A DNA stretch of 12,458 nucleotides from an uncultured Candidatus Bathyarchaeia archaeon (GCA_964450845.1 CAYVGZ010000045.1:1-12458), one strand, 5' to 3'; positions 1-10,804 are shown, numbered from the stretch's first letter. Translations and numbers: made by a program. The notes: a model not told the origin generated them from the letters alone.

Positions 1-819
1 ATAAGCCTTCATCAAATTAACCCTAATCAAAAACTCATTCGCAGAATAAATCCCACCGAGGTTTTCTCCCGGCACATTCATAAACTGAGGCAACCCAGCA
101 CCAGTGCCAATAAAAACCGCATCAAAACCCCGCTCCTTAAGCAACTCGGGAATAGTATAAGTTCTACCAACCAGATAGCCCAACTTAAGCTCAGCACCCA
201 ACTTCTTAATATAGTCCACTTCCGCCTGCACAATACTCTTTGGCAAACGAAACTCTGGAATCCCATAAACCAAAACGCCACCAGGCAAATGCAAAGCCTC
301 AAAAACCACAACCTCATGCCCAAGCTTAGCCAAGTCAGCCGCAGCAGTAAGACCCGCTGGACCAGCGCCTATTATTGCCACCTTTTTACCAGTAGAATAA
401 GCCTTATCAGGAATTGCAATGCTTCTTTCTCTTTCCAAATCAGCCACAAACCTTTCCAATCGGCCAATGCTTACTGGGTCGCCAACTTTTCCAAGAACAC
501 AGAATTTTTGGCACTGCTCTTCCTGTGGGCAAACGCGACCACAAATTGCTGGCAGACTATTTTTCTCCTTAACCTTCTTCACAGCCTCATCAAACTTTCC
601 CTCTCTAATCAATTTAATAAAAGCTGTTATGTCAACTTCCACAGGACAACCTTGCACACACTGGGGTTTTGGGCATTGTAAACAGCGGTTTGCTTCAGCT
701 ATAGCTTGTTCTTTAGTATAACCCAAAGCAACCTCGCTAAAGTTTTGCTTACGAACCTTTGGTTCCTGTTTGGGCATTGGCACAGCTTCTTTCTGAACCT
801 TAGGCTTACTTTCCGCCAC
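1..819 (-). CDS. nfnB: NfnB/SudA-type large subunit of NADH-dependent reduced ferredoxin:NADP+ oxidoreductase (GltD-like flavoprotein); partial, runs off the left edge
   Basis: Not in the ORF track; translated manually. GTG at 819 with GGAGG 8 nt upstream gives MAESKPKVQKEAVPMPKQEPKVRKQNFSEVALGY..., CLQCPKPQCVQGCP, CGRVCPQEEQCQKFC, IGRLERFVAD, the FAD motif KVAIIGAGPAGL, YGIPEFRLP, FIGTGAG and GIYSANEFLIRVNLMKAY. The frame is open to base 1 and overlaps the nfnA stop by 14 nt. Confidence 0.9.
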   Translation of the reverse strand, partial: MAESKPKVQKEAVPMPKQEPKVRKQNFSEVALGYTKEQAIAEANRCLQCPKPQCVQGCPVEVDITAFIKLIREGKFDEAVKKVKEKNSLPAICGRVCPQEEQCQKFCVLGKVGDPVSIGRLERFVADLERERSIAIPDKAYSTGKKVAIIGAGPAGLTAAADLAKLGHEVVVFEALHLPGGVLVYGIPEFRLPKSIVQAEVDYIKKLGAELKLGYLVGRTYTIPELLKERGFDAVFIGTGAGLPQFMNVPGENLGGIYSANEFLIRVNLMKAY

Positions 820-1645
820 TGCCACAGCCTCCAAGCTTTTCCCACAAAAGTGAGCTTAACCTCTCTTCTGGAAGAAACAGTCTTTGCCTTTTTATCAACT
901 CGTCAAAATCCACGCTGTGACCATCAAATTCTGGCCCATCCACACACCCGAATTTCATTTTTCCACCAACTGTGACTCTGCAAACTCCACACATTCCCAT
1001 TCCATCAACCATTATAGGAGTCAAAGTCACAACTGTGGCAACGCCAAATGGCTTTGTGATTTCAGAAACACTTTTCATCATAACAACCGGTCCCATAGCG
1101 ATGCAACGGTCAAACTTTTCTTTTCCAAGAATTTCCTTTAGAAATCCAAGTCCTTTATAACCCTTGGAACCGTCATCTGTTGCCACATAGACTTTTTCAC
1201 TCAAAGCCTTCATTTCTTCCTCGAAAAAAAGCAGATCCTTAATCCGTGCTCCAATAACAGTTGTGACAGTATTTCCAGCTTCCCGTAAAGCTTGAACTTG
1301 CAAAAGCATCGGCGCAATCATTACACCGCCAGCAACGCACAAAACTTTTCCGAATTTTTTGATTTCTGATGGATTCCCAAGAGGTCCAGTAATGTTCTCT
1401 ATGTATTCGCCTTCTTTTAGAAGTCCAAGCTGTTTTGTCGTTTTGCCGACCTCATTGAATGCGAATGTTATTGTTCCCCTCTTCTTGTCGTAGCCAGCTA
1501 TCGTCAACGGTATGCGTTCGCCTTTTACGCCTATTATTAGTATTATGAATTGGCCTGGTTTGATTTTTTCAGCTATTTCTGGAGCGTAAACCTCAAATAA
1601 TCTGATTTTTGGAGCTAACTCTCTGTTAGTTATGATTTTAAACAT
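806..1645 (-). CDS. nfnA: NfnA/SudB small subunit (FNR/PyrK-like FAD/NAD-binding protein with [2Fe-2S])
   Basis: 279 aa with KPGQFIIL, GERIPLTIA, GPLGNP, VAGGV, TDDGSKG and the C-terminal [2Fe-2S] motif MVDGMGMCGVCRV...CVDGPEF. Lies directly upstream of nfnB. Confidence 0.92.
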   Translation of the reverse strand: MFKIITNRELAPKIRLFEVYAPEIAEKIKPGQFIILIIGVKGERIPLTIAGYDKKRGTITFAFNEVGKTTKQLGLLKEGEYIENITGPLGNPSEIKKFGKVLCVAGGVMIAPMLLQVQALREAGNTVTTVIGARIKDLLFFEEEMKALSEKVYVATDDGSKGYKGLGFLKEILGKEKFDRCIAMGPVVMMKSVSEITKPFGVATVVTLTPIMVDGMGMCGVCRVTVGGKMKFGCVDGPEFDGHSVDFDELIKRQRLFLPEERLSSLLWEKLGGCGSGGK

Positions 1646-2858
1646 GTGATTTAGCCTCCGCCGTTGCCATTTTTGAGGGTGGCATGGAAGTTATCTTTTT
1701 GAAAAACTCGTCCAGTTTCTGGTTGAGCTCCCCAACACATCGAGGTGAGGCTGTGAAAAGTTCGAAACGGTCAATTAGGTTCATTTTCTTTAAAGTGTTT
1801 CGTAGTACACTCATGTTTCTTTCTGAGGTTTCCCTGCCTTCTTGGAGTTTACAGTCTTCTTCTGAACATACGACAGCCATCACGCCGTCAAAGCCGCTAT
1901 GTAACGCCTTAACAACATGAGCTGGGTCAAGCGCTTTGAAGCATGGAATTTCTATGATGATCGCTTTTTTCTTTTGTAGTAGGCTTTCAGGGTCGTCCAA
2001 TGCTGAAAACTCTGACCATTGACAACAAAAGACTAGAATAACTGGGAACTTTCCTTCTGCTTTTAGCTTTGCGGCTGATTCTCCGTAACGTTTTAAAACA
2101 TCGTCAAATGCAAAACCCTTAATCTGAATTGCCAAATGCGGACAAACCAAGGCACACGCTCCACAGCCAACACACAAGTCATAGTTTATCTTTGGTGTTG
2201 CAAACTCCTCCGCCTCTATGGCTTCGTATGGGCAAATAAAGACGCATTTGTCACAGCCTACGCACTTTTCTGTTTCATAAACCACTTTCCGCGAATACTT
2301 TATCACTTTTAAGGCGTCTCTACTGAAACCTAATTGCTCAAGCAATTCCTTGCCAAGCATCATTCTTCTAGCGTTTATCTTTGTGCCTTCCTTGAACCTG
2401 CAAAATCCGTCTTCACATTGGATGGAAATAACATTTTTTACGCCAGATTTCAAAGCCTGAAAGATGAACTCTGTTGGGATTCGTCCAGAACATGGTAAAC
2501 GTAACGGAATGTAATTGCTTATGTTTAAGCCTTGATCTTGCAAGATTTCCTCAATTTCACAAGTTGCAGGCGAGTTTCCTCTACACATGAGAACAAGCGT
2601 GTTGCTTTTACATTTGTCCCGCATGTAGTTAACATGCTTCAGCAAACTGTCATAATCATAATAGACTATTTCTATAGCTTGGGATGGACATGCACTATAG
2701 CATATTCCGCAAACTTGGCATTTTTGCAAATCCATCTCTACTTTGCCTGTCTCTGAATAGCGTTTTATGGCTTCGTAAGGACAGGTAGAGTAGCAGATTG
2801 AGCATTTGCTACAATAGTCTTGGTTAATGTTTATTGCGGCGACACACGCTTTACTCAT
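1638..2858 (-). CDS. Tandem (2x[4Fe-4S] ferredoxin + MvhD/FlpD-like) x2 iron-sulfur protein
   Basis: 406 aa with four CxxCxxCxxxCP motifs (C16-26, C47-57, C199-209, C229-239) and two MvhD-like domains: LMC92..PC123SGR..C148EDGFC153 and FC278C279QWS..IPC306..DGVMAVVC331SEEDC336. GGAG upstream; 8-nt overlap with nfnA (ATGTTTAA). Confidence 0.85.
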   Translation of the reverse strand: MSKACVAAININQDYCSKCSICYSTCPYEAIKRYSETGKVEMDLQKCQVCGICYSACPSQAIEIVYYDYDSLLKHVNYMRDKCKSNTLVLMCRGNSPATCEIEEILQDQGLNISNYIPLRLPCSGRIPTEFIFQALKSGVKNVISIQCEDGFCRFKEGTKINARRMMLGKELLEQLGFSRDALKVIKYSRKVVYETEKCVGCDKCVFICPYEAIEAEEFATPKINYDLCVGCGACALVCPHLAIQIKGFAFDDVLKRYGESAAKLKAEGKFPVILVFCCQWSEFSALDDPESLLQKKKAIIIEIPCFKALDPAHVVKALHSGFDGVMAVVCSEEDCKLQEGRETSERNMSVLRNTLKKMNLIDRFELFTASPRCVGELNQKLDEFFKKITSMPPSKMATAEAKSHV

Positions 2859-2994
2859 TTTACATGTTTCTCCAATGTTTTAGCGTTGTCTACTTCACAG
2901 CGTAACTGTTTTATTTACGTTTAGAAGTATTTGAAGACAATTCAGAATAATATAATGGTTTTGGAGTGTTTTATGTTGTTTGCAATAATGCTTC

Positions 2995-3930
2995 CTATTG
3001 TTTGTAGTAATATGGTCTTCGAATGTAACCGTAGGCTTCTAGAGCTGTAGTTATGCCCTGTCCCACTGCGGTTCCAATCTGTTTAACTGGATGGTTTGTA
3101 ACGTCTCCAGCTGCGTAAACCCCTACTATGTTTGTCCGCTGTCGAATGTCAATCATTACATATCCATCCTTGTCAACATTAACCCCTGCCTCTTTGGCTA
3201 TTTGACTGTTAGGTGTTTCTCCAACTTGAACAAAAACGCCGTCAACAAGCAGTCCTTTGGTTTCTCCAGTGTTCCTATTGAAAATTGTTACTTCATTTAC
3301 TAGTTTTTCACCTTTAACTTCTTTCACCTCAGTGTTCCACAAAATTTCTACGTTCGCTTTTTCCGTTAATGCCTTAACAAGGGCTTCTTCGGCACGAAAC
3401 GTACCTCTACGATGCGCAAGTTTTACTTCCGATGCAAGCCCTGCAATGTATAGAGCGGTAATCAGTGCTGAGTTGCCGCCGCCGACAACAAGTACACGTT
3501 TACCTTTAAACAAGGGACCATCACAGATGCCACAATAGCTTACCCCTCTTCCAAGGAACTCTTTTTCGCCTGGAACGCCAATTCCACGATAACGGGAACC
3601 AGAAGCAATAATGACCGCCTTTGCCTCATAGGAGGCTTTACCTGTTCTCACGATTTTCTTCTCATCCCTAAGGTCAAGGTTTAGAACTTTTTCAAATTCA
3701 CGGATGAGCACGCCTGTGCTTCTACACTGCGCCACCATTTTCTGCATTAGTTCGAACCCGCTTATATTCTGAAAACCTGGGTAATTCTCAACTAATGGTG
3801 CGTCTGCGGTTGTGCCCCCAGCAATTTTTTCGTCTAAAACAATGGTTTTTAGTCCGCTTCTTGCAGCATAAATTCCGGCAGCTAAACCGGCAGAACCCGC
3901 GCCAATGATTATTAAGTCCCAACTTTCCAT
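2995..3930 (-). CDS. trxB: Thioredoxin-disulfide reductase (NADPH-type)
   Basis: Start reassigned to ATG 3930 (MESWDLIIIGAGSAG; GAGG upstream), giving 311 aa. Motifs: GRGVSYCGICDG (CxxC), GGGNSA, HRRGTFR, GVYAAGDVT. Confidence 0.92.
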   Translation of the reverse strand: MESWDLIIIGAGSAGLAAGIYAARSGLKTIVLDEKIAGGTTADAPLVENYPGFQNISGFELMQKMVAQCRSTGVLIREFEKVLNLDLRDEKKIVRTGKASYEAKAVIIASGSRYRGIGVPGEKEFLGRGVSYCGICDGPLFKGKRVLVVGGGNSALITALYIAGLASEVKLAHRRGTFRAEEALVKALTEKANVEILWNTEVKEVKGEKLVNEVTIFNRNTGETKGLLVDGVFVQVGETPNSQIAKEAGVNVDKDGYVMIDIRQRTNIVGVYAAGDVTNHPVKQIGTAVGQGITTALEAYGYIRRPYYYKQ

Positions 3931-3994
3931 GCAAACACGCCTCAGACGATTTGTTCTTGTGAAAAGGTGTTTATCAATTATTCGCAATCTAAGC

Positions 3995-4010
3995 GGCAAA
4001 TGTTTAATTC
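3995..4010 (+). promoter_or_regulatory. BRE/TATA candidate of the MFS gene
   Basis: GGCAAAtgTTTAATT, about 38 nt upstream of ATG 4048. Confidence 0.35.
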
Positions 4011-4047
4011 TCATCGATGCAAATTAGAGACAGGCGGTGCTTGCTCA

Positions 4048-5433
4048 ATGAATGACGCATCAAAACAAAAACCAGAAACTGCGAGAACTCGTTTGACTGG
4101 CATGGTAGGCTTCACTGTTATTTGGATTGGTCAAATGTTTTCGCTTCTAGGGACATCCATGACAGCGTTCGCCATTACTATTTGGGCTTGGGAAGTTACG
4201 CAGGAGGTAACAGCTCTGACGTTGATTGGTGTTTTCAGCTTTGCACCGCTTATTCTGATGAGCCCGATTGCAGGAGCATTAGTGGATCGTTATAACAGAA
4301 AGAAAATCATGATGATTGCTGATTTTGCAGCAGGCTTGCCAACAGTAGCTATTTTATTGCTCTACGTAACCGGCAACCTACAAGTCTGGCATCTATTCAT
4401 AACAGGGGCAATTGCAGGCACATTTCAAGCTTTTCACTTTCCAGCATATTCAGCCGCTGTTACAATGATGGTCAAAAAAGAACAGTATGGTCGTGCCAGC
4501 GGCATGCTCTCAATAACACAGTTTGCCTCAACCATTTTTGCACCTATTGTTGCAGCCCTCATACTTACCATAGTCGGACTTGAGGCGGTACTAATCATTG
4601 ACATAATTACCTTTACGACAGCAGTTCTTATGTTGCCTCTCATACATATTCCGCAACCTCCAATTAGCGAAGCTGGACGCAGAGGAATGGGCAGCATTTG
4701 GAAACAATCCGTTTACGGATTTCACTACATCTATGAACGACCAAGCCTGCTTGGCATACAACTAGTTTTCTTCTGCATAAACCTGTTCGGCAGTTTCGGT
4801 AACACTGTAGTGACGCCGATGATTCTTGCACGCACAGGAGATGACAGCATAATCTTGGGAAGTATCATGTCCGCTGGTAGCGTTGGTGGATTAGTCGGCA
4901 GTGGAGTATTGACGCTTTGGGGTGGTCCAAAGCGTAAGGTGCATGGCATATTGATAGGAATGGTGTTGATCAGCCTTTTTGGTGGTTTGTTTATTGGACT
5001 TGGTAGAGCGCCCTATGTTTGGGCTCTAGGTCTTTTCCTTTCGATGTTTTTCCTACCCATAGTAAACGGTTCCAATCAAGCTATTTGGCAGGCCAAAGTG
5101 GCTCCAGATGTGCAAGGGCGCGTTTTTGCCACACGACTATTGATTGCGCAAACATCTGTGCCCATTGCTATGTTGTTGGCTGGTCCTTTAGCCGATCGAG
5201 TTTTTGAGCCAGGTATGATGGCAGAAGGCAATCTACAATCACTTTTCGGCGGGTTAGTTGGAAGTGGTCGCGGAGCTGGTATGGCGCTTATGCTTTTGAT
5301 TGCTGGATTTTTAGGCATTCTTGTCGGTTTTGGAGCGTATGCCTTTCGTGCAGTGCGAAATGCAGAAGACATCCTACCCGATCACGACGCAAAACCCTGC
5401 CCAACAGAAAATGAAAATCAGCCTATTACATAA
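4048..5433 (+). CDS. MFS transporter, DHA3/MefA-like efflux type
   Basis: Start reassigned to ATG 4048 (GGCGGTG upstream), giving 461 aa. About 12 hydrophobic helices; IWIGQMFSLLG; motif A GALVDRYNRKKIM; QAKVAPDVQGRVFA. Confidence 0.85.
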   Translation: MNDASKQKPETARTRLTGMVGFTVIWIGQMFSLLGTSMTAFAITIWAWEVTQEVTALTLIGVFSFAPLILMSPIAGALVDRYNRKKIMMIADFAAGLPTVAILLLYVTGNLQVWHLFITGAIAGTFQAFHFPAYSAAVTMMVKKEQYGRASGMLSITQFASTIFAPIVAALILTIVGLEAVLIIDIITFTTAVLMLPLIHIPQPPISEAGRRGMGSIWKQSVYGFHYIYERPSLLGIQLVFFCINLFGSFGNTVVTPMILARTGDDSIILGSIMSAGSVGGLVGSGVLTLWGGPKRKVHGILIGMVLISLFGGLFIGLGRAPYVWALGLFLSMFFLPIVNGSNQAIWQAKVAPDVQGRVFATRLLIAQTSVPIAMLLAGPLADRVFEPGMMAEGNLQSLFGGLVGSGRGAGMALMLLIAGFLGILVGFGAYAFRAVRNAEDILPDHDAKPCPTENENQPIT

Positions 5434-5445
5434 CATAATAGTATA

Positions 5446-6555
5446 TTACAGGGCCTGTGCAACCAGCTCTGCTATATCCATTATTTGGATTTTGCCTTCA
5501 TTGCCAGTAGTTTTCACAGCGTCTTCTATAGTTAGCAAACAGAATGGACATGCAACAGCTAAAACGTCTGCACCAGCGGCTACAGCATCCTTAACGCGTA
5601 TTTCTGCAAGTCGTGGACCTGAAATGTCAACCCACATTCGTCCGCCACCACCTTCGCAGCAGAGGCTTCTCGCCCTTGAACGGTCAAACTCTAATAGCGT
5701 CACGCCTGGAATGTTTTTAATAACCTTTCTAGGCTCTTCGTAGATGCCGTTTTGTTTACCCAAGAAGCATGGATCATGATAAATAACCTTCTTGTTCACT
5801 TCTTTTGAGAGAGTAAGTTTTTTGTCTTCGATGAGTTTTGCAAGTAGTTGCGTGTGATGTTGCACCTCGAAACTAGTTTGGTTGTATCGGTTTTTGAACG
5901 CGTGAAAGCTATGTGGACAGTTTGTAACTACTTGTTTTATGTTGTATTTGTTGAAAATTTTCATGTTTTCTTCAACTAGAAACTCGAATAAGCCTTTTTC
6001 ACCCATGCCGTAAACTTCGCTTCCACAGCAACTCTCCTCATCGCCCAAAACGCCAAAGTTTACTTCAGCCTTTCCAAAACATGTGGCAAGGCTTTTAGCT
6101 ACGTTTTGAACCCTTGGGTCGTAGGCTGATGTGCAACCGACATAATAGAGAATTTCTGCACCTTGCGAAATGTGCTTAAGATTTAGGCCTTGACTCCACT
6201 CAGAACGTTTGCTGCGGATTCTCGCCCATGGGTTACCATTTTTGAATATGCTCTCTAACGCGTCTCTGATGGTTGGAGCTATTTGTCCTTGTTCAACGGC
6301 CATGCTGCGGATGTCAATCAAAAATTCGTATGGATGCATGTCTTTGGGACAGCGAATAGCACATGCGGAGCAATTCGTGCAACTCCATAACTCGTTCTGT
6401 GGATGTATAGTTAACTGGCCCAAAACAGAAACCTCGCGCATGTACTTTCTAACGTTTAGGCCAGCTTTTCTTGCAACTGGACAGCTTCCAGTGCACATTC
6501 CACATTGAATACATTCGAGAAGCTTATGCTTTTGGACAAGCTCCTGAACATTCAT
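5446..6555 (-). CDS. HdrD-like (Fe-S)-binding protein: HdrC-like 2x[4Fe-4S] domain plus two CCG domains (GlpC/HdrD family)
   Basis: 369 aa with CIQCGMCTGSCP and WSCTNCSACAIRCP, GNPW, C141-x34-CC-x35-CxxS and HDPC263-x35-CC-x35-CPFC339. Confidence 0.85.
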   Translation of the reverse strand: MNVQELVQKHKLLECIQCGMCTGSCPVARKAGLNVRKYMREVSVLGQLTIHPQNELWSCTNCSACAIRCPKDMHPYEFLIDIRSMAVEQGQIAPTIRDALESIFKNGNPWARIRSKRSEWSQGLNLKHISQGAEILYYVGCTSAYDPRVQNVAKSLATCFGKAEVNFGVLGDEESCCGSEVYGMGEKGLFEFLVEENMKIFNKYNIKQVVTNCPHSFHAFKNRYNQTSFEVQHHTQLLAKLIEDKKLTLSKEVNKKVIYHDPCFLGKQNGIYEEPRKVIKNIPGVTLLEFDRSRARSLCCEGGGGRMWVDISGPRLAEIRVKDAVAAGADVLAVACPFCLLTIEDAVKTTGNEGKIQIMDIAELVAQAL

Positions 6556-6585
6556 TTTCTACATCACTTTTTACTGAAATGAAGG

Positions 6586-6603
6586 AGTAAGATTTTTAAT
6601 AAG
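6586..6603. promoter_or_regulatory. Candidate shared TATA element of the divergent hdrD-like/hdrA promoters
   Basis: AAGATTTTTAATAAG reads TTTAATAA on the + strand and TTATTAAA on the - strand, inside a 99-bp divergent gap. Confidence 0.4.
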
Positions 6604-6654
6604 TGTTTTCCCTTGTATGAATCAAAACATATCATGAAAAATGGAGATTGCCCG

Positions 6655-9021
6655 ATGGAGAGGAAACCACTTAGAATCGGCATTTTTGTCTGTGAGTGCG
6701 GTGGAAACATAGGCGACGTTATAGACGTTAAGGCAGTTGTTGACGCTGTTAAGAATTGGGAAGGAGTTGCAGTCGCTAAATATAACAAATATTTGTGCTC
6801 AAAACCAGCTCAAGAAATGATAGTTGAAGCCATAAAGAAAGAGAATTTGGACAGAGCAGTGGTTGCAAGCTGTACGCCGAGAATGCACCTTGCCACGTTC
6901 CAAAGCGTTTTAGAAAGGGCTGGTTTGAATCCCTACATGCTCGAGTTTGTAAACATTAGAGAGCAAAGCTCGTGGGTTCACGGACCGCACGCATCAACGG
7001 AAGCCACAAGGAAGGCTATAAGCCTAATTAAAGGTGGATACGAGCGAAGTCAGGAGCTTGAGCCTTTAGAAACCATAAGCGAAAAATGCTCAAGAGAAAT
7101 CCTAATTATAGGTGGTGGCATAGCTGGAATTACTGCTGCACTTGAGCTTGGATATTTAGGCTTTAAGGTATATCTTGTGGAGAGAAAACCTAGCATAGGC
7201 GGCAACATGGCAAAACTGACAAAGGTTTTTCCGACCCTTGACTGCGCTCAGTGTATTTTGACTCCAAGGATGGCTGAGGTTGGAAGGAACCCAAACGTAA
7301 ATCTGCTTACTTATGCAGAAGTACACGATGTTAGTGGGCGACCGGGCAATTATTCTGTTAAGGTTTTCATGAAGCCGCGAGGCGTGGACATTGAGAAATG
7401 TAGGAGTTGTGGCGTCTGCGCCAAAGTTTGCCCAGTAACTGTTCCAGACGAGTTTAATGAAGGCTTGTCTCAGAGGAAAGCGGCTTATATAGAGTTTCCG
7501 CAGGCTGTTCCGTCTGCTTACGCTATAGATTTTGATGTTTGTACGAAATGTGGAAAATGTGAGAAGCTTTGTCCATCTAAAGCCATAAACCTAGAGGACA
7601 AAGGCAAGACTGTCGAGCTAAACGTTGGCGCGATAATTTTAGCCACAGGATACAAGCTTTACGATGCCAGAAACTTGGAAATTTACGGTTATGGCAATTA
7701 CAAAGATGTTATAACAATGATGGATTTGGAGAGGCTTACTTCTGCTACAGGACCCACAGGTGGCTATGTTAAGAGAGCTGATGGTAGTGACGTTAAGAAG
7801 ATGGCTATTGTGTTGTGTGCTGGTTCAAGAGATAAGAACTACATTCCCTACTGCAGCCGCATTTGCTGCATGTATTCGCTGAAGCAGGCGTTTGTTCTTA
7901 AGAAGATGTTGGGAATAGATGTTACAATTCATTATATTGACATAAGGGCTACGGGTAGGGGCTATGAAGACCTTTACTGGCGAGACGAGGAAGCAGGAGT
8001 TGTTTTTATACGTGGAAAAGTGGCTGAAATCTATAAGAACAGTGGTAATGGTAAACTTGTAGTTTTGGCTGAGGACACGTTGACGGGTGAGACTGGGGAA
8101 TACGAGTATGATATGGTTGCTTTGGCTACGCCTATGGTTGCGCCCAGTGGTTTGAAGGAGTTGGCGGATAAGATGAAGGTTGCTACGGGTGAGGATGGTT
8201 TTGTTACGGAGAAGCATCCTAAGCTTGATCCTGTTGATTCGCTTGTTAGTGGAGTTTTTGTTTGTGGTTGTGCTTTGAGTCCTAAGGATGTTCGGGATAC
8301 GGTTTCTGATGGTTTGGGGGCTGCTTCGAGGGCTTCTTTGTTTTTGAAGAGTGATTATGTTACTACGAGTCCAGAGAAGGCGTATGTTATTGCGGATTTG
8401 TGTAATGGATGTGGTGAGTGTGTTAAGGTTTGTCCTGTTAACGCTATAACGATGGTGGATGGTAAGGCGAGGATTGATCCGTTTCAGTGTGTTGGTTGTG
8501 GTGCTTGTGTTCCTGTTTGTCCGTTGGAGGCTATTGATTTTAAGAATTCGACGGCGAGGCAGATGGTTGCTGAGTTGAGGGGTGTTTTGGCGGATAAGCA
8601 AAGCGATGAGGTTAGGGTTGTTGCGTTTGTTGATCGGAATGTTGGTTATACTGGTATGGATTTTTTGGGTTTGGATAGAACGAATTATCCAGAGAATATT
8701 CGGATTGTGTCTGTTCCGTCTACGGCTATTTTGGGTTTGAAGCATTTGCTTTGTGCGTTTGCGTTTGGTGCTGATGGTGTTTTGGTGATTGAGGGTTCGC
8801 AGGAGATTGATGAGCGGTTTACGAAGAAGAGGGTGATTGAGTTTGGACGGGAGTTGGCGAAGTATGGTGTTGAGAGTATGCGTGTGCGGTACAGTTATGT
8901 GCCTTTGCCCGTGTATAAGAAGGCTGCTGAGTTGTTTACGATGTTTGTGGATAGAATTAAAAAGTTTGGTCCGTTGGCGGATGATAAGCGTAATGCAATT
9001 AGGGAAAAGTTGCGGATGTAG
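6655..9021 (+). CDS. hdrA: Heterodisulfide reductase subunit A-like flavoprotein with fused C-terminal ferredoxin and degenerate MvhD domain
   Basis: Start reassigned to ATG 6655 (GGAG upstream), giving 788 aa. Motifs: FVCECGGNIG, LCS, ASCTPRMH, IIGGGIAG, KVFPTLDCAQC, inserted ferredoxin (CRSCGVCAKVCP, CTKCGKCEKLCP), MDLERL, YCSRICCMYSLK, C-terminal ferredoxin (CNGCGECVKVCP, CVGCGACVPVCP) and an MvhD-like tail (YPENIRIV..AFAFGADGVLV). Confidence 0.92.
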   Translation: MERKPLRIGIFVCECGGNIGDVIDVKAVVDAVKNWEGVAVAKYNKYLCSKPAQEMIVEAIKKENLDRAVVASCTPRMHLATFQSVLERAGLNPYMLEFVNIREQSSWVHGPHASTEATRKAISLIKGGYERSQELEPLETISEKCSREILIIGGGIAGITAALELGYLGFKVYLVERKPSIGGNMAKLTKVFPTLDCAQCILTPRMAEVGRNPNVNLLTYAEVHDVSGRPGNYSVKVFMKPRGVDIEKCRSCGVCAKVCPVTVPDEFNEGLSQRKAAYIEFPQAVPSAYAIDFDVCTKCGKCEKLCPSKAINLEDKGKTVELNVGAIILATGYKLYDARNLEIYGYGNYKDVITMMDLERLTSATGPTGGYVKRADGSDVKKMAIVLCAGSRDKNYIPYCSRICCMYSLKQAFVLKKMLGIDVTIHYIDIRATGRGYEDLYWRDEEAGVVFIRGKVAEIYKNSGNGKLVVLAEDTLTGETGEYEYDMVALATPMVAPSGLKELADKMKVATGEDGFVTEKHPKLDPVDSLVSGVFVCGCALSPKDVRDTVSDGLGAASRASLFLKSDYVTTSPEKAYVIADLCNGCGECVKVCPVNAITMVDGKARIDPFQCVGCGACVPVCPLEAIDFKNSTARQMVAELRGVLADKQSDEVRVVAFVDRNVGYTGMDFLGLDRTNYPENIRIVSVPSTAILGLKHLLCAFAFGADGVLVIEGSQEIDERFTKKRVIEFGRELAKYGVESMRVRYSYVPLPVYKKAAELFTMFVDRIKKFGPLADDKRNAIREKLRM

Positions 9022-9195: not shown

Positions 9196-9220
9196 GTTGT
9201 GTTATCTATTTGTATTTCAA

Positions 9221-10357
9221 ATGTTTCGTGAAGACAGTGACTTTGGAATCTTTGGGTCTATAATTGGCTCGTGGTATGAATCTTTAAAAGACCCAGAACT
9301 TTATCAGAAAAAAGTCCTAGTGGATTTAGTCAGAGAGTATGATAAAACTGTTTATGGACAAAATCACAATGCGTCTGAAATTGAAGACATTGAGAGCTTT
9401 AGAAGGAACTTTCCAATTGTTGATTATAGTGGTCTTAGCCCGTATTTTGACGAAGCGGTAAAAGGCAATTATAAGGCTATTCTTCCTGAGCCAGTTTTGT
9501 GTTGGGTTATGACTCGAGGCTCAACAGGTGCTGCAAAAGTCTTGCCAGCAACTAAAACTCACATGGAACAGATTTTTACGTGCGGGGCAAGGGCATTGGT
9601 GAATTATACGATAAGAAAAAAAGACTTCGAAATATTCAATGGAAGAATCCTCAACCTAAATTTTCCATCCAACGTCCACGCCATGAATGTTTCTGGCCAA
9701 GAAGTCACTTACGGTTACAGTTCTGGCACTTATGCAAGGCTTAATCCAATGCTTAATGAAGTTAGTCTTGTGCCACGACAAGAAGAAATTGACTCTTTAG
9801 GTTCAGGCATAACTACGCGAGATTGGGAGAACAGATTCGAATTGGCGTATCAAAAAGGGCTGGCTGAAAACGTAGTTGCCACCATGGGGGTTACACCAAT
9901 AATCATGGCTTTCGCTAGATATGTGAAAAGAAAGCATGGAAAAAAGCCTAGGGACCTTTGGAAGTTTCGAGCCCTGTTCTGCACGAGCGTTCGGAAAATC
10001 CAATTTAAATATGCACCGAAATTGAGGAAATTTTTCGGCGAAATTCCAGTTGTCGAAATCTATAGTGCTACTGAAGGAGTCTTCGGACAACAACTCGACG
10101 ATTTGCCGTATATTTCACCAAACTACGACAAATATCTGTTTGAAGTGGAAACCCGTCAAGGAACAAAGATGCTGCATGAACTTAAGCGCGGAGAATGGGG
10201 CAAGCTAATAATCTCATCCTGCATGTTTCCAAGATATGACATTGGCGACTTAATAGAAGCAGCTGGAAAAAACTATTTTCGCGTGTTCGGAAGGAACAAG
10301 CTCTTAATACGCTTGGAACATAGGCTATACAGGTTTTTCCTCACATGGGCAACTTAG
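9221..10357 (+). CDS. GH3-family (acyl-adenylate-forming) protein, short form
   Basis: ATG 9221 preferred over TTG 9197, giving 378 aa. GH3-type N-terminus (P..Q..VL..L..T.YG..F...P...Y..L.PY), P-loop-like TRGSTGAAK, EIYSATEG, RYDIGD and hinge FRVFGR. Confidence 0.8.
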   Translation: MFREDSDFGIFGSIIGSWYESLKDPELYQKKVLVDLVREYDKTVYGQNHNASEIEDIESFRRNFPIVDYSGLSPYFDEAVKGNYKAILPEPVLCWVMTRGSTGAAKVLPATKTHMEQIFTCGARALVNYTIRKKDFEIFNGRILNLNFPSNVHAMNVSGQEVTYGYSSGTYARLNPMLNEVSLVPRQEEIDSLGSGITTRDWENRFELAYQKGLAENVVATMGVTPIIMAFARYVKRKHGKKPRDLWKFRALFCTSVRKIQFKYAPKLRKFFGEIPVVEIYSATEGVFGQQLDDLPYISPNYDKYLFEVETRQGTKMLHELKRGEWGKLIISSCMFPRYDIGDLIEAAGKNYFRVFGRNKLLIRLEHRLYRFFLTWAT

Positions 10358-10761
10358 ACTGCAGGATATCTTCTTCTCGCCATCATTAGTGCATATATTG
10401 TCCCAACTATCAGCAGCAATCCGGCAATAATAATGAAGGAAGCCCATACAACTTGTCTGGTAAACGCAGTAATGACGCCTGTTACTTGCAGAAAAGAGAT
10501 TAAGCCTATAATTAGCAATATGCATCCGCCAATGAAAGGTCCAATGAAGGCATATTCGCCCTTCTCGTGTTTCTCCCCTTTCTCTTGCTTTTCCTCTTTT
10601 TCGTGTTTCTCGCCCTTTTCTTCTTTCTCACTTCTATAACGTCTAGGTGCGATTGGTTGTTGCTCAGTGGGTTGTGCTTCAGCTTTTAATGGTGCCCCAC
10701 AACGAGGACAAAAGCTCATATCCTCTCTAACTTTGTAACCGCATTTTTTACACTCTGACAT
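10354..10761 (-). CDS. Zinc-ribbon domain membrane protein with EKx repeat linker
   Basis: ATG 10761 (AAGGTG upstream; GTG 10767 is an alternative start). CKKC-x14-CPRC, then (EKx)8, then two hydrophobic helices and a basic RRRY tail. Confidence 0.8.
   Translation of the reverse strand: MSECKKCGYKVREDMSFCPRCGAPLKAEAQPTEQQPIAPRRYRSEKEEKGEKHEKEEKQEKGEKHEKGEYAFIGPFIGGCILLIIGLISFLQVTGVITAFTRQVVWASFIIIAGLLLIVGTIYALMMARRRYPAV
10558..10629 (-). repeat. In-frame 9-bp tandem repeat, 8 units encoding EKx
   Basis: GAR-AAR-NNN x8 = EKE EKG EKH EKE EKQ EKG EKH EKG. Confidence 0.9.
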
Positions 10762-10804
10762 TATCACACCTTACCTATACCTTACCATCTTATTCCTTTC
10801 CAAA

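Follow-up and report, generated by a model that had tools for sequence, protein, structure and literature searches.

A tandem MvhD-type adaptor encoded with NfnAB in Bathyarchaeia, a probable protein substitute for NAD(H)

The contig CAYVGZ010000045.1 of an uncultured Candidatus Bathyarchaeia archaeon (GCA_964450845.1), analysed here over its full length of 12,458 nucleotides (nt) and referred to as the window, encodes the two subunits of the flavin-based bifurcating enzyme NfnAB together with an MvhD-type adaptor protein. We consider it probable that the three proteins form one enzyme, a three-subunit 'MvhD-coupled Nfn', in which the adaptor acts as a protein wire replacing nicotinamide adenine dinucleotide (NAD(H)). 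The basis for this is conserved gene order, overlapping open reading frames (ORFs), cofactor motifs, a substitution specific to one NfnA subfamily, and a model of the complex that passes its controls. The window is an entire contig (C45) of a metagenome-assembled genome of 1.64 Mb, 93% complete. A previous reading of the sequence alone (the sequence-only reading) had listed trxB, the adaptor gene, nfnA, nfnB, an HdrD-like gene and hdrA, with overlapping ORFs, and both content and order were borne out by Pfam and NCBIfam scans of the gene calls and by the sequence. Three points had to be corrected: trxB is the first gene of the co-directional string and the best-conserved neighbour, HdrA has a fused ferredoxin-MvhD (Fd-MvhD) tail, and the absence of mvhAG and hdrBC applies to this contig only (see below).

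The genes trxB, adaptor, nfnA and nfnB all lie on the minus strand. The first, trxB (3930..2995), encodes a low-molecular-weight NADPH thioredoxin reductase (TIGR01292, 344.8 bits, cut-off 343.45) with the NADPH motif HRRGTFR and a CGIC at residues 133-136 that is invariant among 75 orthologs. Its end is separated from the start of the adaptor gene (2858..1638) by 136 A/T-rich nt. The adaptor itself, 406 amino acids (aa), has the arrangement Fd-MvhD-Fd-MvhD: two 2x[4Fe-4S] ferredoxin domains (Fd1 and Fd2), each followed by a FlpD/MvhD domain (MvhD1 and MvhD2). As read from the sequence, the adaptor stop and the nfnA start share 8 nt (ATGTTTAA). The nfnA (NfnS) gene (1645..806) encodes 279 aa (NF004862, 373 bits) with a flavin adenine dinucleotide (FAD) domain, a [2Fe-2S] D-C-C-C motif and an NAD-type domain, and it overlaps nfnB by 29 nt, given a TTG start. 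Finally, nfnB (NfnL; 834..1) is cut by the contig end. Its N-terminal 278 aa include Fer4_20 (149 bits) and the start of the FAD domain, with two [4Fe-4S] sites and the motif YGIPEFRLPK.

A gene-neighbourhood survey, which had been proposed as a check in the sequence-only reading, confirmed the linkage of the adaptor with nfnAB. In a set of 80 Bathyarchaeia loci, one genome per species and with adaptor identities of 63-88%, about 79 have trxB, the adaptor gene, nfnA and nfnB in colinear order. The gap between trxB and the adaptor has a median of 108 nt and is at most 150 nt in 75 of 78 loci; the spacing between the adaptor and nfnA is -8 nt in 30 loci and at most 150 nt in 73 of 74. The overlap between nfnA and nfnB is found in related loci as well. 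The order is kept even at 45-51% adaptor identity (families f5, f12, f15 and f23), where nfnA still follows the adaptor. A search for fusions of the adaptor with an Nfn subunit returned none longer than 711 aa at E<=1e-30, which is weak evidence. It might be argued that these neighbouring redox genes share only their regulation, through NADPH supply and use, and that no physical complex exists; trxB-nfnAB strings devoid of an adaptor, as in genomes G082, G130 and G124, show NADPH-related clustering alone. We regard this as very unlikely, given that start and stop codons overlap, that the linkage persists at 45% adaptor identity and that the complex model described below passes its controls. 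The trxB gene, and gdh in other lineages, probably do cluster with Nfn as NADPH users, and TrxB would then be a co-located NADPH consumer rather than a wired subunit.

Two further observations concern the distribution of these genes. A contig labelled Candidatus Sulfotelmatobacter / Acidobacteriota (L085, DATGZD010000019.1, protein P0101) carries a Bathyarchaeia-type trxB-adaptor-nfnAB string with 66% identity. As it falls within the NfnA clade of Bathyarchaeia, it is probably mis-binned. In L102, L103 and L105, the adaptor operon has a true gdh next to it.

Judged by sequence, NfnB and NfnA are genuine NfnSL orthologs. A full-length NfnB ortholog from a related locus (L014; 474 aa, 90% identical over the part present in the window) matches Thermotoga maritima NfnB (4YLF_B) with 608 bits and aligns with it end to end, including GGGN.AMD and YRR..E.PAR. 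The window NfnA matches Pyrococcus furiosus NfnI (5JCA_S) with 293 bits, and its ERIPLT and VDGMGMCGVCRV...GCVDGPEF motifs align with both 5JCA_S and 4YLF_A. The Gly-rich loop of its NAD-type domain, however, reads AGGVMIAP instead of GGGVG(I/V)A, with Met replacing the second Gly, and orthologs of the window protein are changed likewise. This second Gly is present in the solved relatives: GGGVGVA in P. furiosus NfnI-S, GGGVGIA in T. maritima NfnA, GGGIGVPP in PyrK and AAGLGTAP in the sulfhydrogenase gamma subunit.

The loop residue was also read from an alignment to which 40 further Bathyarchaeia NfnA loci had been added. Among 25 stand-alone nfnAB loci, including the adaptor-less trxB-nfnA-nfnB strings of G082, G130 and G124, the position is Gly in 23 and Ala in 2. 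It is Met, Phe, Trp or Leu in every NfnA encoded after an MvhD-domain gene, no matter whether this gene is a tandem adaptor or HdrA::Fd-MvhD; some loci have a Gdh-like gene between it and nfnA. In a quick maximum-likelihood tree (IQ-TREE), all MvhD-linked NfnA proteins plus that of G123 form one clade with an SH-aLRT support (Shimodaira-Hasegawa-like approximate likelihood ratio test) of 98; the stand-alone NfnA proteins fall outside. It is conceivable that this whole NfnAB subfamily has swapped NAD(H) for a docked Fd-MvhD module, supplied either as a free tandem adaptor or as an HdrA tail, and thereby became a plug-in bifurcating unit for [NiFe] hydrogenase or HdrA. We offer this generalization tentatively and would slightly sooner doubt than affirm it.

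The adaptor matches PF02662 over two stretches (135.6 bits). It has 24 invariant Cys residues, consistent with four [4Fe-4S] and two [2Fe-2S] clusters, and 56 sequences share the MvhD Cys sets C92/123/148/153 and C279/306/331/336 without exception. When its structure was modelled (predicted local distance difference test, pLDDT, 80.6), the top PDB matches found by Foldseek were the MvhD chains 5odc_D, 8rvu_F and 7bkb_F (TMt 0.75-0.80). The usual MvhD context is nonetheless lacking: the adaptor is encoded with nfnAB in the window, and with mvhGA and nfnA but no HdrA in families f12 and f15. Between Nfn-type adaptors and those found with MetVF (see below), Fd2 and MvhD2 track the type of partner and Fd1 does not. 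Therefore, the C-terminal half of the adaptor was chosen for modelling of the complex.

The complex model comprised NfnB, NfnA and adaptor residues 189-406 of L014 (87-90% identical to the window), which were used because the window NfnB is truncated; the interface residues of L014 are identical or nearly so to those of the window. The interface score ipSAE was 0.87 (0.88, 0.87 and 0.87 in single runs). The best control, in which NfnB was replaced and the partner still sat on NfnA, reached 0.52, and unrelated partners gave 0.00 and 0.17. The mark set for ipSAE was reached by 58 of the 80 solved complexes in the benchmark and by 2 of its 110 mismatched pairs, counts that are rough here since our own alignments and three chains were used. 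At least 82% of the contacts agree between runs, and the partner pLDDT is at least 79. The solved structures include no comparable complex, and the pass is therefore not owed to a known template. Complex modelling, too, had been suggested beforehand as a check, and it did predict an adaptor-NfnA interface.

On the NfnA side the interface is formed by residues 106-107 (GG of AGGVMIAP), 132-135 (GARI), 155-158 (ATDD) and 186-189 (PVVM) and by the conserved C-terminal tail 251-271. We take the four loops to be the nucleotide-binding crest, as expected from the topology of FNR/PyrK-type domains. On the adaptor side the contacts are made by residues 196-208, 216-221 (AEEFAT) and 237-241 of Fd2, and only six NfnB residues are in modelled contact; the 0.52 of the NfnB-replaced control fits a predicted interface that is mainly with NfnA. 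The model supports binding of the adaptor to NfnA without showing it. A proline in the inter-cluster loop of Fd2 (P222) is invariant in Nfn-linked Fd-MvhD modules, in a small sample; it is absent from the MetVF-type module, from a module on another contig (C16) of the same genome and from the HdrA2-tail module of the window.

The model also bears on a different explanation, in which the adaptor is a dedicated polyferredoxin on the low-potential [4Fe-4S] arm of NfnB and NfnAB remains an ordinary NADH-dependent transhydrogenase. Ferredoxin-like domains do dominate the adaptor, and the NfnA NAD-domain residues are mostly canonical. But the adaptor is placed on NfnA in the model, touches NfnB with six residues only and stays when NfnB is replaced, while the subfamily-specific change from Gly to a bulky residue sits in the NAD loop. 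We thus find the polyferredoxin role improbable.

Several considerations weigh against the replacement of NAD(H) by the adaptor. First, apart from the Gly-to-Met change, the residues of the NfnA NAD domain resemble those of NAD-using NfnA, so that NAD(H) binding may survive. Second, since the MvhD-linked proteins form one clade, the correlation between the loop change and MvhD has a single origin rather than many independent ones; the substitution arose once, and the correlation counts as one evolutionary event. Third, one clade member, G123 (with Phe), lacks an MvhD gene in the roughly 3 kb upstream of its nfnA. Fourth, the complex model covers only the C-terminal half of the adaptor and is free of cofactors. 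Lastly, the adaptor could have its own promoter in the 136-nt gap and may not be co-transcribed with trxB.

For the three-subunit enzyme we propose the following scheme, in which the exclusion or disfavouring of NAD(H), the direction of electron flow and the distal partner are inferred. NfnB keeps its NADPH site, its bifurcating FAD and two [4Fe-4S] clusters toward ferredoxin. NfnA keeps its FAD and [2Fe-2S] cluster, but its NAD(H) cleft is remodelled by the bulky Met and, in the model, filled by Fd2-MvhD2. The high-potential electron normally exchanged with NAD+/NADH would then go to, or come from, a six-cluster protein wire, along a putative path from the NfnB flavin through the [2Fe-2S] cluster, NfnA FAD, Fd2, MvhD2 and Fd1/MvhD1 to a second enzyme, or in reverse. 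The free N-terminal Fd1-MvhD1 half would exchange electrons with this second enzyme, which may differ by lineage. It would be an Mvh-type [NiFe] hydrogenase where mvhGA-hycI share the operon (f12, f15), and HdrA where Fd-MvhD is the tail of HdrA itself (f18 and part of f5). With HdrA as the second enzyme, two bifurcation modules would be chained. In the genome studied here, this role could fall to the Mvh hydrogenases of contig C12 or to the neighbouring HdrA2 and HdrD.

The latter two are encoded upstream of trxB. The HdrD-like protein (6555..5446, minus strand), in which HdrC and HdrB parts are joined in one chain, has Fer4 with 2x[4Fe-4S] motifs and two CCG domains (101.5 bits). The second CCG domain has 5 invariant Cys and the first only 4, CPHS replacing CxxC, and the top family match of the protein is the C-terminal part of TfrB. 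The divergent hdrA2 gene (6613-9021, plus strand) encodes an HdrA2-type HdrA::Fd-MvhD (NF040770, 855 bits over model positions 1-774, under the 1100-bit exception cut-off), with the FlpD domain of its C-terminal Fd-MvhD at residues 669-786. The flavin-site Glu (LER) and Lys (CCMYSLK) align with their counterparts in solved HdrA (8RVU chain a), so the retention of these two residues, like that of YGIPEFR in NfnB, was correctly recognized in the sequence-only reading.

That reading went further and suggested that the adaptor may wire NfnAB to the HdrA2 encoded nearby, the HdrD-like protein serving as disulfide arm, in one hydrogenase-free machine with two bifurcating flavins. The gene neighbourhood is partly consistent with this: hdrD and hdrA2 (at least 70% identity) stand upstream in 41 of the 63 loci that have at least 6 kb of flank, and in a few species hdrD shares the strand of trxB, with 61-73 nt between its end and trxB. 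In sister lineages (family f18 and part of f5), members of this NfnA subfamily immediately follow an HdrA that carries the Fd-MvhD module as its own tail, which makes Nfn-to-HdrA wiring plausible in principle, and in class II benzoyl-CoA reductase (BCRII) an MvhD-like adaptor couples two bifurcation modules (10.64898/2026.04.10.717634). In most f18 loci (L137-L144, for example L139:1821-7647), HdrA::Fd-MvhD and nfnAB are separated by a Glu/Leu/Phe/Val-dehydrogenase-like gene with 35% identity to Gdh.

Co-occurrence tells otherwise. In a class sample of 151 genomes, with adaptors called as full-length, Nfn-type and at least 45% identical and HdrD orthologs at 70% identity or more, the adaptor is found in 21 genomes and an HdrD ortholog in 16, but both in only 5, plus one with a 50% variant. 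Fifteen of the 21 adaptor-positive genomes lack an HdrD ortholog, including seven of the window's own family, each at least 92% complete, in which no HdrD match at E<=1e-40 was found. Conversely, 11 of the 16 HdrD-positive genomes have no adaptor. HdrA2/HdrD is therefore a frequent neighbour in one subclade rather than an obligate partner. Moreover, the fused MvhD of HdrA2 would fill the canonical MvhD site, and hdrA2 is transcribed divergently. The synteny, the overlaps and the complex model thus uphold that the adaptor belongs with NfnAB, and an obligate Nfn-adaptor-HdrA-HdrD network has to be abandoned; that HdrA2 and HdrD serve as the partners in this organism seems unlikely.

The sequence-only reading also noted the absence of mvhAG and hdrBC. 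This is correct for the 12.5-kb contig and incorrect for the genome, which has three [NiFe] large subunits, three HdrB genes and eight MvhD domains, five of the latter beyond the window; the MvhD, [NiFe] and HdrB genes are on contigs C12, C16, C24, C29 and C49. On C12 (L097:1919-12458, minus strand), a co-directional string encodes a GcvH-like protein of 196 aa, a GltD/NfnB-like protein with a ferredoxin domain (585 aa), an MvhD-like protein of 116 aa, a 115-aa ORF, a 1005-aa HdrA-like protein, MvhD, HdrC, HdrB, MvhG and MvhA. A second set on C12 reads MvhA-HdrA::MvhD-HdrC-HdrB. The GcvH/lipoate-carrier-like gene at the head of the Hdr/Mvh operon recalls LbpA of sulfur-oxidising sHdr systems.

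An Mvh-type [NiFe] hydrogenase encoded elsewhere in the genome, on C12, could accordingly be the distal partner. The result would be an H2/NADP/ferredoxin enzyme in which H2/H+ replaces NADH/NAD+. Single operons of this kind exist in other families: mvhG-mvhA-hycI-adaptor-nfnA-nfnB in f12 (L104) and mvhG-mvhA-hycI-adaptor-nfnA in f15 (L101, L102 and L105), where nfnB is 2 kb off, beside gdh. The finding of the adaptor with mvhAG elsewhere had been named in the sequence-only reading as evidence against it, and these operons partly bring such evidence. The MvhA of the adaptor operon in f15 is 68% identical to C12 MvhA of the present genome. A [NiFe] large subunit occurs in all 21 adaptor-positive genomes of the class sample and in about half of the others, a co-occurrence that is only suggestive, related genomes not being independent observations. 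By our own calculation, the H+/H2 couple at about 1 Pa H2 is near -270 mV, so that at the H2 levels of sediments it would be close to NAD+/NADH. However, both C12 hydrogenases are in Hdr operons with an MvhD of their own, and the orphan hydrogenase of C49 does not co-occur with the adaptor. For the genome at hand we consider the Mvh hydrogenase a possible partner, but a doubtful one.

Two candidates were dropped in this connection. The C49 hydrogenase (L111:1440-3718, minus strand) is encoded by an mvhG-mvhA pair that stands as an orphan: it is flanked by a winged helix-turn-helix regulator and a membrane transporter, and neither MvhD nor Hdr nor any other redox partner is encoded nearby. It was rejected as the partner: the f15 operon MvhA is only 41% identical to it, and orthologs (at least 61% identity) are in only 5 of the 151 sampled genomes, one of them adaptor-positive. 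Genome G020 had seemed to be adaptor-positive without a hydrogenase, and was discarded as such when a family search gave a [NiFe] large-subunit fragment at a contig end.

Distant tandem paralogs of the adaptor (35-42%) are found with MetV/MetF. In G041 (L107:1603-6671) and G004 (L106:2975-10803), paralogs of 35-37% are in the strings adaptor-metVF-mvhG-mvhA and fwdBAC-mch-adaptor-metV-metF, which are candidate HdrA-free, hydrogenase-wired reductases of methylene-tetrahydrofolate or methylene-tetrahydromethanopterin. A tandem MvhD protein beside either Nfn or MetVF suggests a general two-ended connector, plausibly with an Mvh hydrogenase at one end in several lineages.

Other Fd-MvhD and Hdr genes of the genome may be mentioned. 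On C16 (L112:3-3726), an Fd-MvhD ORF cut by the contig end is immediately 5' of three 2-oxoacid:ferredoxin oxidoreductase subunit genes. The minus strand of C29 (L098:9758-14529) has a 1127-aa frame that includes a GltD-like (Fer4_20) segment; two ORFs come after it, one of 169 aa (HdrC-size) and one of 291 aa with CCG (HdrB-type) matches. The 1127-aa frame may be a candidate 'type III HdrA' as described in PMC12054007.

The window has some further genes. A major facilitator superfamily (MFS) transporter of the H+ antiporter family (3967-5433, plus strand) lies between hdrD and trxB on the opposite strand. Only about 8 of 80 related loci have an MFS gene in this interval, which suggests a recent insertion into the cluster, and the transporter is probably outside the system. 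The hdrA2 gene is followed by a GH3-like gene, two genes for membrane proteins and a truncated gene for ADP-forming acetyl-CoA synthetase. In the region 9197-10767, the short GH3-family (acyl-adenylate-forming) protein of 386 aa is convergent with a zinc-ribbon membrane protein that has a Lys/Glu-rich repeat linker. The trio of GH3, zinc-ribbon and 167-aa membrane proteins recurs 3' of nfnB in L029 and L037.

Bathyarchaeia are abundant in sediments and have many Hdr/Mvh parts. To our knowledge, non-methanogenic Bathyarchaeia lack coenzymes M and B. An Nfn coupled to MvhD would help to explain how such organisms connect their pools of H2, NADPH, ferredoxin and thiol/disulfide. Textbooks present NfnAB as the minimal enzyme of flavin-based electron bifurcation, and it is held to be self-contained, so a wired variant would show that it has a modularity like that of HdrA. 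In a full-text search of the literature for MvhD coupled with NfnAB, only the paper on HdrA-NfnB fusions of anaerobic methanotrophic archaea (ANME) matched. If the adaptor does replace NAD(H), it would give a concrete identity to the 'X' of an Xfn-type enzyme and provide a second natural case of chained bifurcation modules.

The closest known system is NfnAB/NfnSL itself (T. maritima 4YLF/4YRY; P. furiosus NfnI 5JCA), which shares the cluster ligands, the YGIPEFR Arg and the NADPH motif YRR..R. Known NfnSL enzymes are two-subunit heterodimers, whereas here there is a third, translationally coupled subunit with six clusters; the NAD loop has GGVM rather than GGVG, and a ferredoxin domain occupies the NAD cleft in the model. 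In P. furiosus NfnII-A the NAD(H) site is occluded and 'X' was proposed as the third substrate instead (PMC12221290). NfnII/'Xfn' (5VJ7) is likewise an NfnSL-type enzyme, and in our case X would be the protein wire. It belongs to a different clade, however (window-type NfnA scores 196 bits to 5VJ7_B and 293 to NfnI-S), has a loop change of its own (IGAYTGIVE) and has no adaptor gene. Two superficially similar systems were set aside: the 'NfnABC' of the literature, which might be taken for a three-subunit NfnSL, is an unrelated Bfu-type enzyme (PMC11829005, PMC12018979), and the WOR 'plug' of PMC12318220 is also of the Bfu type and not relevant.

Sulfhydrogenase I of P. furiosus (9NEZ) has a [NiFe] hydrogenase, an Fe-S subunit and an NfnA-like gamma subunit with FAD and [2Fe-2S], and thus resembles the f15 arrangement mvhGA-hycI-adaptor-nfnA. 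Its gamma subunit, though, keeps the NADPH site (AAGLGTAP) and is fed via the [2Fe-2S] side, and the enzyme has neither an MvhD domain nor NfnB. A chain of bifurcation modules has been demonstrated in BamGH-BamF-BamE (10.64898/2026.04.10.717634), and one was proposed for HdrA-NfnB fusions (PMC9012536). In both the BamF-linked BCRII and the HdrA-NfnB/GltD insertions of ANME-1 and Bathyarchaeota ('type III HdrA'; PMC9012536, PMC12054007), an MvhD-type adaptor or a fusion connects an HdrA-type module with a second flavin module, one linked to NAD(P)H, as may be the case here. The former uses the HydBC-type BamGH and in the latter an NfnB-like domain is inserted in HdrA; neither combines an NfnA/NfnB heterodimer with a tandem MvhD protein. 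Finally, the adaptor shares with MvhD/VhuD of the MvhAGD-HdrABC and FdhAB-MvhD-HdrABC complexes (5ODC, 7BKB, 8RVU) the fold (TMt 0.75-0.80) and four [2Fe-2S]-type Cys per MvhD, and with the tail of Methanosarcina acetivorans HdrA2 (PMC5296606) the order Fd then MvhD. Unlike these, it is a free-standing tandem duplicate encoded with Nfn (or, in its paralogs, MetVF) instead of HdrA, and its predicted partner surface is an FNR-type NAD cleft.

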